From a virus (lineage: Duplodnaviria > Heunggongvirae > Uroviricota > Caudoviricetes), in the IMG/VR virus record IMGVR_UViG_2563366911_000001: 64,000 nt of DNA, one strand, 5' to 3'. Position numbers and translations under genes: made by a program. Below, one piece after another: positions 62,047 through 63,793 of the stretch (positions within the stretch are counted from its first letter, which is position 1; the number at the start of each line of letters is the position of its first letter). The notes under the pieces were generated by a model. That model saw only the letters and a program-made list of their open reading frames with translations, did not search any database and had not been told where the DNA came from.

Positions 62047-62885
62047 CCTCTCACTCCATTATTTAACGAATAAAAAAGCTGCGGTGCCGGGTGCCTCCCG
62101 GTGTCCTTTGGCTGGTTATCCACCGTGGACGGGGAAACAAGGAGAAATAATGGACAGATATAACCATTTCCCCGCGTGCGCTTAGCCGCATTCACCGCAA
62201 CGGAAAGAGCATTCTTGGTGGACCTGTAGATTGGGATATGAACCCGTTACAGGAGAATGCTCTTACCTGTTACGTGCTCCGTTTCGTGGAGCTAACGGCG
62301 GGTGATCGGGCCGCACCAGACTGGACTTATTTCAGCGTTATGCTCATGCCAGAGAATCAAACTGTGATGGTCGGTGCTGAACTCCGACACAGGGTTGTAG
62401 CAAGCCCCGCAAAGCGCGCACTACTGTAGTTGCGGCACATCAGCCTGTGCATTCACCTCAATGTTGAGAACACTGGTTGTCACGCTGCAACGCAACATTT
62501 ATTCGTAGATTGGGATATGACCCCGTTACGCCAGTGTTCTCAACGTTGTAGTGCCGGTTACGGTTCCGGCCAGGCCTCTTCCTCAACGGGGTGTTCTCCA
62601 TACGGACTACCGTTTATTGGTCGTTCCTGCGGTTTATGTTGTGAAGCCAGATGCTTATCTTCTGGTTGCTTCAAAGAGCTGCACTTCATCACAACGGTAA
62701 GAGCACTCGATGCATTTAAGCCAAGCCCCATAAGGGAGAATGCCCTTACCTGTTGTGTTGTGATGACCGGTGCTGATCTCCGGCTTGCGGTTATTTCAGA
62801 CTCTCACGGGCGTTTAATTGCCCCGCCGAACAGCTCTTTTCCGCAATAGCTGCAATGTCTTTCGCGCATCAGCCTGCGCATTCAT

Positions 62886-62972
62886 CACAACGGTAAGGGT
62901 ACTTCGTAGGGATTCGAACCCTCTGCCAAGCTCGGCGATCTCCGACGTCGCAAAATACCCTTACCTGTTGTG
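62886..62972 (-). ncRNA. tRNA-like hairpin element directly after tRNA-Thr
   Basis: 16-bp arms CACAACGGTAAGGGTA / TACCCTTACCTGTTGTG around a loop containing GGTTCGAATCC. Confidence 0.35.
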
Positions 62973-62973
62973 C

Positions 62974-63049
62974 TGGTGCCGATTAACGGACTCGAACCGC
63001 TGACATCCTGCTTACAAGGCAGGCGCTCTACCAACTGAGCTAAACCGGC
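62974..63049 (-). tRNA. tRNA-Thr (UGU)
   Basis: GCCGGTTTAGCTCAGTTGGTAGAGC...CTTGTAA...GGTTCGAGTCC...CACCA. Confidence 0.9.
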
Positions 63050-63051
63050 AT

Positions 63052-63127
63052 TGGCGATGGTGGATGGATTTGAACCATCGACCCGTTGATTAACAGTCAA
63101 CCGCTCTAACCGCTGAGCTACACCATC
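63052..63127 (-). tRNA. tRNA-Asn (GUU)
   Basis: GATGGTGTAGCTCAGCGGTTAGAGC...CTGTTAA...GGTTCAAATCC...GCCA; 2 nt from tRNA-Thr. Confidence 0.9.
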
Positions 63128-63793
63128 ACTTGCCGGGTACGTCTCCGGCGAGGGCTTCCACCTCCGTATGCTTTTCGGCGCACCGCGCCCTGGCTGCAAT
63201 TCGGTAACAGGGGATGCACAACCCTGGCTTCCAGCGTGATTAGCGCCTTCAGCATGACGGGATATACCCGTAAATTCGTGGAACTGTACCCAAAGTGCTG
63301 TTAAGCACCGCTGTTACGCTGAAAAGAAAACGCAACAGGAAAGGACGCTGACCAACAGATGGCCCCTTCTCGTTCATCTGGTTAATCACACCAGCGCCCT
63401 TACCTGTTGTGCCTCCCCGTTCCCTAATACACAGACGGGGACACTCTGCGGTCGATTTTTTTGACGGGGGACGACTCATACCCCGTGGCATCTGGTTTCT
63501 TAGGCCGCTACCATCATCAGATCATCGTTTGCATTTACTTTAATGGTCAGTTTCTAAACCGCCGCAAAGTCGCTAACCATGACGAAAACCCTGAAAAAAA
63601 CGCCCACCCGAAGATGGGCAAACTGGAAGCTCGTAACGCACTTCGGAGTTGCCACTTAGGCGCATGGTCAACCTGGCAACTCGGTGGTTTGTCTGGGAGG
63701 ACTAGGCCCAGCCATGCTTACCGCCGCGCCTGTCGCGGCTAACAGCTAAATCGCGCTATAAATCACGATTCATTGAGGCGATATTACACTAAT

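Follow-up and report, generated by a model that had tools for sequence, protein, structure and literature searches.

The leader of the ban operon and its five hairpins

The window analysed here is a stretch of 64,000 nucleotides from a tailed phage (Caudoviricetes; IMG/VR record IMGVR_UViG_2563366911_000001), and the subject of this report is a family of five long-stem hairpins that lie near its end, around two transfer RNA (tRNA) genes and on the same strand. The last 2.2 kb of the window show 99.5% identity to Escherichia phage RCS47 and ∼99% to P1, and by this resemblance the window ends in a P1-like phage. In the P1 record, the strand equivalent to the minus strand of the window reads from the promoter Pban with its bivalent C1 operator through a "dicF-like region", tRNA-Asn, tRNA-Thr, the tci genes and a tRNA with a CAT anticodon to ban; in the window, the tci genes are replaced by a gene for an SPFH lipoprotein and a small membrane-protein gene. 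The bivalent operator at Pban (Op72 of P1) lies at 63781-63812, where we found an inverted repeat (I2) at the position homologous to the P1 annotation. Judged from this comparison, it marks the start of the transcript that holds all hairpins, tRNAs and modules described below. About 1.75 kb separate the operator from the first credible gene (62046 downwards), and by the same homology this hairpin-bearing stretch forms the untranslated leader of the ban operon on the minus strand, which C1 represses and which would be transcribed from Pban upon prophage induction. Its two tRNA genes, tRNA-Asn (GTT; 63052-63127, minus) and tRNA-Thr (TGT; 62974-63049, minus), were identified by ARAGORN and score 74.5 and 72.9 bits with the Rfam tRNA model.

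Members of the family consist of a 6-bp base, (C)ACAAC/GUUGUG, a bulged A, a further helix of 12–18 bp (GGUAAGRGCAYU.../...AGUGCUCUUWCC) and an apex. The consensus of the basal stem, (C)ACAAC-A-GGUAAGRGCAYU / AGUGCUCUUWCC-GUUGUG, comprises ∼19 bp, and the apex of 7–82 nt is wholly different between types. Scanning the 64-kb window with a covariance model (R1) built from 19 diverse members returned exactly five matches, all on the sense (minus) strand, with E values from 1e-11 to 1e-16. The five sites score 48.9–67.5 bits in the sense versus 27–36 bits in the antisense direction, partly by construction, since all five stand in the R1 seed alignment in some form; members outside the seed (from lambda, Serratia, Citrobacter and others) score 48–59 bits.

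The first hairpin, H1 (63330-63412, minus; R1 55.4 bits, E 1.3e-12), lies upstream of the tRNAs and folds at −33.6 kcal/mol (z −3.9; plus strand −24.5 kcal/mol); the position usually occupied by the bulged A is paired in it (AACAGG/CCUGUU). H2 (62885-62973, minus; 58.9 bits; −42.3 kcal/mol, z −5.9; plus strand −34.9) follows the CCA end of tRNA-Thr after a single G, has a stem of 6 + 18 bp and carries the T-arm-like sequence GGGUUCGAAUCCC in its apex at 62909-62921. H3 (62689-62758, minus; 67.5 bits; −34.5 kcal/mol, z −6.1; plus strand −24.1) represents the commonest type in public phage contigs, with an identical 64-nt core in 50 loci. H4 (62454-62553, minus, with the R1 match at 62456-62551; 48.9 bits; −44.4 kcal/mol, z −5.0; plus strand −41.4) has a variant basal stem, CUACAAC-G-UUGAGAACACUGG, and contains GGGGUCAUAUCCC in its apex at 62512-62524. 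Finally, the apex of H5 (62195-62275, minus; 59.6 bits; −35.8 kcal/mol, z −5.3; plus strand −32.7) combines GGGUUCAUAUCCC (62233-62245) with an unpaired UCCACCA (62216-62222). All z values refer to shuffled sequences, and on the minus strand they range from −3.9 to −6.1.

A repeat search recovered inverted repeats at H2 (I8, 62892-62904/62953-62965), H4 (I1, 62454-62476/62531-62553, with 23-nt arms of 87% identity) and H5 (I3, 62202-62215/62254-62267), together with the direct-repeat families D1–D7, of which D6 (62226-62250 and 62505-62529) is 25 nt long and 96% identical. Allowing up to two mismatches, CACAACAGGTAAG occurs five times in the 64 kb, all within 62262-63411, where 0.92 occurrences are expected (0/100 shuffles); the motif of the 3′ arm occurs three times against 0.12 expected, a count that no shuffle reached.

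An earlier note, made from the letters of this DNA alone, had described long-stem repeats around the tRNAs, and by repeat search, shuffles, folds and covariance model they are indeed there and in excess of chance. It had separated three elements with shared arms from another with 17-bp arms; the elements hold up but the division does not, as they are five members of one family that includes H4 and H5. Its elements at 62886-62972 and 62690-62757 are H2 and H3, and the one with 17-bp arms is H4. Confining the family to 62220-63415 was correct apart from H5, which lies partly outside the start of that region, and the relevant strand is the minus strand, as for the tRNAs. The T-arm noted in one element is that of the H2 apex, but the 16-bp stem assigned to this element has to be corrected to 6 + 18 bp. 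The direct repeat tgggatatga(a/c)cccgttac is D6, the apex shared by H4 and H5.

A covarying RNA structure on the transcribed strand

In the alignment of the 19 diverse members, 93.9% of the cells form standard pairs versus 36–55% when the partner is slid, and two-sided changes occur at 10 of the 19 pairs; none of 500 shuffles reached the observed pairing or covariation. G.U pairs outnumber A.C combinations 27 to 7 in this set. Among 59 unique sense members we counted 918 Watson-Crick, 81 G.U and 18 A.C cells, where members fetched by pattern had been pre-selected for conserved arms and add little covariation information at those positions, and where an alignment fitted to the covariance model leans towards its structure. 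Because A.C on one strand corresponds to G.U on the other, the excess of G.U, together with the compensatory changes, shows an RNA structure formed on the minus strand. The family is a conserved, covarying and strand-specific RNA structure of the transcribed strand, in agreement with the phage non-coding RNA family that the earlier note had listed among its explanations and for which lambda and lambdoid prophages now provide homologues. The outer helix has a median length of 19 bp plus bulge and mismatch, and measures 17–21 bp in 52 of the 59 members. It also preserves irregularities: a U.U mismatch in 27/59 members (replaced by U-A in 23/59) and a U.G pair in 38/59.

On the opposite strand, antisense to this structured leader, two open reading frames (ORFs) are annotated in P1 and RCS47: upl (62238-62429, plus, 63 aa) and plp (62430-62849, plus, 139 aa). 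That the plus strand encodes Upl and Plp and that the repeats are incidental to them appears scarcely credible to us. Both frames are open, and Upl matches two PHROG families of unknown function. However, a Pfam search of both proteins and a PHROG search of Plp gave no match, and plp starts with TTG. The ORFs of relatives break off, shift frame or are interrupted precisely where modules meet, other annotations of the same stretch contain different ORFs or none, and the frames run antisense to a strongly structured, covarying RNA. Both genes are probably spurious products of ORF calling on structured RNA. The initial description of ∼1.7 kb as non-coding contradicts the annotation of the opposite strand but was probably right. 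About 1.75 kb of P1, which is among the most used phages in genetics, would then be seen to carry an array of structured RNAs and not the hypothetical genes upl and plp.

The decayed tRNA genes or tRNA 3′-half remnants suggested by the earlier note are largely refuted as a source of the hairpins, and we regard this origin as very improbable. It draws on the T-arm features of some apexes: H2 contains a good T-arm, (A)GGG-UUCGAAU-CCC(U), flanked by a 7-bp helix, H4 and H5 contain only 3-bp versions (GGG-UUCAUAU-CCC), and H1 and H3 contain none. Relatives also harbor additional tRNAs in neighboring slots (Tyr in Ro157c2YLVW; Ser in P7, D6 and Cyrano), and contig L014 has a tRNA-Thr in which the anticodon arm is replaced by an insert. 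But none of the hairpins is matched by the tRNA model at E ≤ 10 or by ARAGORN: the check with both programs, which the note had proposed, detected only the tRNAs at 63052-63127, 62974-63049 and 60899-60974. Furthermore, the conserved part of the family is a basal stem foreign to tRNAs, T-arm motifs are restricted to some of the variable apexes, and most members have neither a tRNA-like apex nor a tRNA in their locus. In the comparison with related phages the hairpins are conserved. Their interleaving with tRNA genes holds for the window but not for the family, because only 4 of 22 further hairpin loci, most of them not P1-like, contain a tRNA; the association with tRNAs is a local one and no general property.

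Several known kinds of element were considered for these sequences. An Rfam scan of the hairpins, both at gathering scores and at E ≤ 10, returned no family and only chance matches to microRNA precursors. The hairpins run into RUGAAU without a U-run, and intrinsic terminators were rejected, the sole terminator-like site of the minus strand (63601-63623) lying off the hairpins. YrlA (RF02553) was rejected with 25.6 bits versus a gathering score of 69, for a match that spans the two real tRNAs and no hairpin. By eye, we also rejected the tRNA-like domain of transfer-messenger RNA (tmRNA) for H2, which has U3.G70 instead of G3.U70 and no CCA. The AAC...GUU cores and the extrahelical base also suggested an integron attC-like site, which we set aside because these cores depart from RYYYAAC/GTTRRRY, no integrase is encoded nearby and the asymmetry between the strands speaks for RNA.

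The lambda homologue and the spread of the family

Beyond P1-like phages, the family is widespread in lambdoid prophages of many Enterobacterales and occurs in phage lambda itself, without being annotated, as judged by matches to its sequence and structure. We located hairpins in the leader between Q and the lysis genes of Klebsiella phage 5 LV-2017 and of an E. coli E2865 prophage, as well as in the leftward early leader of mEp460. A scan of one genome per species recovered members in Serratia, Klebsiella, Citrobacter, Kluyvera, Enterobacter, Pantoea, Brenneria, Rouxiella, Kosakonia, Raoultella and others. Of 5426 complete E. coli genomes, 1329 contain partial matches to the region, which lie on chromosomes and on P1-type plasmids in stretches that carry no annotated feature. 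In every locus for which neighboring genes or the terminator were inspected (P1, RCS47, mEp460, Klebsiella phage 5 LV-2017, E2865 and lambda), the hairpin has the orientation of the surrounding operon. The hairpin thus connects the P1 leader with lambda's late leader and with hundreds of prophages of E. coli, and neither Rfam nor genome annotation includes it.

The lambda homologue (44786-44863, equal to 987-1064 of contig L110; R1 59.3 bits) begins a few bases past the tR′ terminator of 6S RNA and ∼320 nt before gene S, and in our repeat search it is the longest two-arm helix between tR′ and S. A hairpin directly after a tR′-type terminator is also found in Citrobacter, Enterobacter and Pluralibacter prophages. 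The lambda hairpin has the same basal stem as those of the window, GCACAACAGGUAAGAGCAUUG...CAGUGCUCUUUCCGUUGUGC, lies in sense orientation in a long leader and is followed by a module closed by GUUGUGCUG/CAGCACAAC. Lambda differs from the window in having a single copy, no tRNAs and a promoter under Q antitermination; the five copies of the window belong to an early operon that C1 represses, in a phage of an unrelated type.

The commonest match in the scan of one genome per species was phage lambda DNA on short contigs of low coverage. Such contigs in assemblies of unrelated bacteria such as Pseudomonas, Psychrobacter, Algoriphagus, Oceanobacillus and Kitasatospora most likely represent laboratory contamination. 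The cryptic prophages Qin and DLP12 of E. coli K-12 gave no hairpin match. The Rac prophage of K-12 harbors a weak family member of 23.6 bits (8480-8567 of contig L113; NC_000913 1418479-1418566, minus); the small RNA KilS begins in its apex and ends at a DicF-like terminator, and an STnc100-like module follows within the 5′ untranslated region of kilR.

The copy number of the hairpins varies, as alignment of the relatives indicates, by recombination between the repeats. P1 has four hairpins and has lost the unit between two identical 3′ arms. Phage SJ46 and contig L009 carry a chimera in which the 5′ half of H4 is joined to the 3′ half of H5 via their shared apex and which no longer folds. 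Identical modules, bounded by hairpin sequences, occur in P1-like and lambdoid phages, and in D6 and P7 a whole lambda-type module lies inside such a stem. Recombinants and shared modules with ends exactly at the repeats are what would be expected if the hairpins were boundary sequences at the DNA level that promote homologous recombination and module exchange, with their folding potential incidental. Yet DNA boundaries of this kind would not account for compensatory changes that keep the arms complementary, for the ratio of 81 G.U to 18 A.C on the transcribed strand or for an orientation that follows transcription wherever neighboring genes were checked. We therefore consider this explanation improbable; because of the strand asymmetry, recombination at the hairpin repeats is probably a side effect. 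The movement of tRNA and small-RNA cassettes from one temperate phage to another, unrelated one is explained by the modular layout.

Stable-RNA modules and candidate RNase III processing

By sequence and predicted fold, the hairpins separate stable-RNA modules: a tmRNA-like module, tRNA-Asn, tRNA-Thr and four modules with the layout of STnc100. The first modules of the leader (63500-63619, minus) open with a strong intrinsic terminator at 63594-63619, ∼170 nt past the operator, so that downstream expression needs read-through. The homologue of the "dicF-like region" of P1 (63585-63686, minus), which this terminator closes, had no Rfam DicF match at E ≤ 10. Next to the terminator, a 40-nt segment (63552-63591) is collinearly antisense to nt 64-106 of E. 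coli tmRNA, including the resume codon and the first tag codons; the predicted duplex has −38.4 kcal/mol compared with −29.6 ± 2.6 for shuffles (0/150), and that of the E2865 copy −40.3 kcal/mol. It is followed by a frame resembling a tmRNA tag (63500-63532), GCA AAC GAU GAU CUG AUG AUG GUA GCG GCC UAA, which reads ANDDLMMVAA*. No in-frame start codon was found for it, nor a tRNA-like domain by ARAGORN or Rfam. Other phages encode ANDDVVLMAA, ANDNLMMVAA, ANDDLMMAAA and ANDNQYLAVA in the same place. Based on the predicted pairing and the tag frame, 63500-63591 may be a tmRNA mimic or an anti-tmRNA RNA; a literature search on phage tmRNA found nothing relevant.

Five aligned units share a common plan. 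The 3′ arm of a hairpin is followed by RUGAAU, the short hairpin GCGCAGGCUGAUGCGC and a variable stretch, and the unit ends with a 4–5-bp stem with a 9-nt loop (AGAUCAGCA and variants) that is immediately followed by UCAYCACAAC. Module M2 (62757-62891, minus), ∼98% identical to segments of lambdoid phages, is closed by GUUGUGAUGA...UCAUCACAAC and contains the hairpin GCGCAGGCUGAUGCGC and the stem-loop CCGG-AGAUCAGCA-CCGG. The short module M3 (62638-62695, minus) has the closing sequences GUUGUG...CACAAC, the stem-loop CCAGA-AGAUAAGCA-UCUGG and repeat D5, and M4 (62362-62462, minus) reads GGUGAAUGCACAGGCUGAUGUGC ... GUCGG-AGUUCAGCA-CCGAC-CAUCACAG and contains repeats D2 and D7. M5 (62069-62201, minus) resembles STnc100/PasD and has the closing stem UGCGGUG...CACCGCA followed by a U-run. 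It matches model positions 31-147 of 206 of the Rfam family STnc100 (RF02076) at 62080-62199 with 38.7 bits, below the gathering score of 47; its homologue on contig L051 reaches 47.3 bits.

M2 to M5 are paralogous and roughly tRNA-shaped: besides a closing stem they have a D-arm-like hairpin, then a variable middle and finally a hairpin next to the 3′ strand; in relatives from Kluyvera and Enterobacter, real-looking D-arm or T-arm sequences occupy the same frame. The layout that the modules have in common with STnc100 and PasD begins with a closing stem and AAU, continues with a 5′ hairpin and a variable middle, and ends with a 3′ hairpin adjoining the closing stem. In contrast, the long hairpins lie outside the match to the STnc100 model. 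STnc100 and PasD are prophage-borne small RNA families, and their description does not include flanking hairpins (bioRxiv 10.64898/2026.05.13.724894).

The ends of a module are complementary to each other: GUUGUGAUGA/UCAUCACAAC in the window, GUUGUGGUGA/UCACCACAAC in mEp460 and GUUGUGCUG/CAGCACAAC in lambda, with a compensatory change from A-U (window) to G-C (mEp460) and C-G (lambda). The GUUGUG of each hairpin consequently has two possible partners, the upstream one that forms the long hairpin and a downstream one that forms the 9–10-bp closing stem of the following module. In the minimum-free-energy fold of the lambda leader the downstream register is used, and this leader as a whole folds far better than shuffles (z −5.4).

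Based on the geometry of the stem, its position and the title of a 1988 paper on lambda, we propose, giving it about an even chance of being correct, that the hairpins are RNase III processing signals of the leader precursor. The features that led us to this proposal are a constant helix of two turns, conserved irregularities, the position between modules or directly after a terminator or a CCA end, and the lambda homologue. In analyses of RNase III substrates, an intramolecular stem is considered over 11 positions to either side of a staggered double cut, and the outer helix of the family is such an intramolecular duplex of about two turns. Daniels, Subbarao, Blattner and Lozeron (Virology 167:568, 1988) reportedly found RNase III sites in lambda late RNA, to go by the title of their paper. 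Processing signals of a polycistronic precursor had also been among the explanations in the earlier note, and the position between stable-RNA modules of what appears to be one transcript is consistent with it.

Cleavage and the steps following from it are what we infer from these properties. The hairpin would form co-transcriptionally and would be cut by RNase III in a staggered manner within the basal helix, which would split the precursor into modules and open the trailer of tRNA-Thr to 3′ exonucleases. The GUUGUG of the freed 3′ arm could then pair with the next CACAAC downstream and form the 9–10-bp closing stem of the following module, the two ends of which would thereby be held in a helix. 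If this is true, it provides a simple rule for the release of phage tRNAs and STnc100/PasD small RNAs from long leaders and a handle for predicting the true ends of these RNAs.

Several observations weigh against RNase III processing. The sequence of the basal stem is conserved far beyond the needs of a double-strand-specific nuclease, including the bulged A, the U.U mismatch and the U.G pair, which could instead reflect binding by a sequence-specific protein, or a recent spread and gene conversion. Even where the stem is altered (contig L067 compared with the window), the commonest type keeps its apex, which a pure cleavage signal leaves unexplained. Loss or scrambling of hairpins is tolerated in some phages (P1, SJ46), so that no single copy is essential. 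KilS of Rac, which starts in the apex of the weak member, was attributed by its authors to its own promoter and not to processing. For the module closing stems, the wider set had been pre-filtered for pairing and is partly circular, leaving the homologous triplet of window, mEp460 and lambda as the clean evidence. Finally, the lambda sites of 1988 probably, to go by the title, lie within 44786-44863, a placement helped by the hairpin being the longest two-arm helix of the repeat search between tR′ and S; the GenBank and RefSeq records of lambda contain no RNase III feature. Our literature searches found no RNA end data for P1-like phages and nothing on the ban operon together with tRNAs, and the papers on P1 tRNAs that they returned do not mention hairpins.

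Alternatively, the hairpins could act uncut, by insulating the folding of the modules, blocking 3′ exonucleases and keeping the 1.75-kb leader too structured for Rho, so that ban is reached. A long, untranslated leader that opens with an intrinsic terminator, the unusually stable fold of the whole lambda leader and the placement of hairpins directly after the 3′ ends of tRNAs or terminators would all suit such a role. Generic structure, however, would require neither a constant stem length nor a conserved sequence, and RNase III of E. coli would be expected to act on stems of ∼20 bp anyway; we consider an uncut function unlikely.

A comparably unlikely explanation shifts attention to the apex: the stem would serve as the holder of a payload, such as a released or displayed small RNA, a protein or RNA decoy or, for apexes with a T-loop, a tRNA mimic, and as the recognition site of a specific protein. 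This would explain why the apex is hypervariable between types and conserved within a type even when the stem changes, and why the conserved stem sequence includes non-canonical features. Several apexes contain T-arm-like hairpins, the unpaired UCCACCA of the H5 apex keeps its CCA in a diverged copy and appears as UUCGCCA in contig L057, and the lambda-type module inside a stem in D6 and P7 would be such a payload. On the other hand, the apexes share no motif or fold, many of them look unstructured, and no gene for a partner protein is consistently adjacent.

RNase III processing has precedents in other transcripts. Cleavage by RNase III is proven for the sites R1–R5 of the T7 early region. 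Like these sites and the processing stems of ribosomal RNA operons, the hairpins of the window are related elements of about two turns that punctuate a polycistronic transcript and have conserved irregularities. They differ from the T7 sites in sequence, in separating stable RNAs instead of messenger RNAs and in their large variable apex; moreover, cleavage is proven for T7, whereas the window hairpins are known from sequence and predicted structure. The rtT repeats distal to tyrT in E. coli and the "species 1 and 2" RNAs of the phage T4 tRNA cluster are non-tRNA RNAs that are co-transcribed with tRNAs and released by processing, and some of them carry tRNA fragments. The likeness to the window lies in repeated or stable non-tRNA RNAs co-transcribed with tRNA genes. 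The architecture is unrelated, the hairpin family mostly occurs without tRNAs, and Rfam RtT had no match in the window scan (E ≤ 10). The hairpin family most likely consists of RNase III processing signals, elements of a kind already known.

Its importance would be greater if the variable apexes or the tmRNA-like module prove functional. More speculatively, and with little confidence, the hairpins could form the conserved framework of a mobile "stable-RNA cassette array" of P1-like and lambdoid phages, in which RNase III-type stems bear exchangeable apical RNAs of 30–80 nt, released as small RNAs in the manner of a primary microRNA transcript, and alternate with tRNA-shaped scaffolds; at least one cassette (63500-63591) would target host ribosome rescue.

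Three further RNAs were seen in the window and in related phages. The tRNA with the CAT anticodon (60899-60974, minus) is called tRNA-Met by ARAGORN, and its P1 homologue is annotated as tRNA-Ile2 (ileX-like, read after lysidine modification). In mEp460, the Hfq-binding RNA isrK (Rfam 67 bits; 4980-5056 of contig L004) lies inside a gene annotated as a Rha regulator. The tRNA-Thr-like gene of contig L014 (2236-2365, minus; Rfam tRNA 44 bits over 130 nt) keeps its acceptor, D and T arms, and with the insert of ∼60–75 nt in place of the anticodon arm it looks like a natural tRNA scaffold that carries another RNA.

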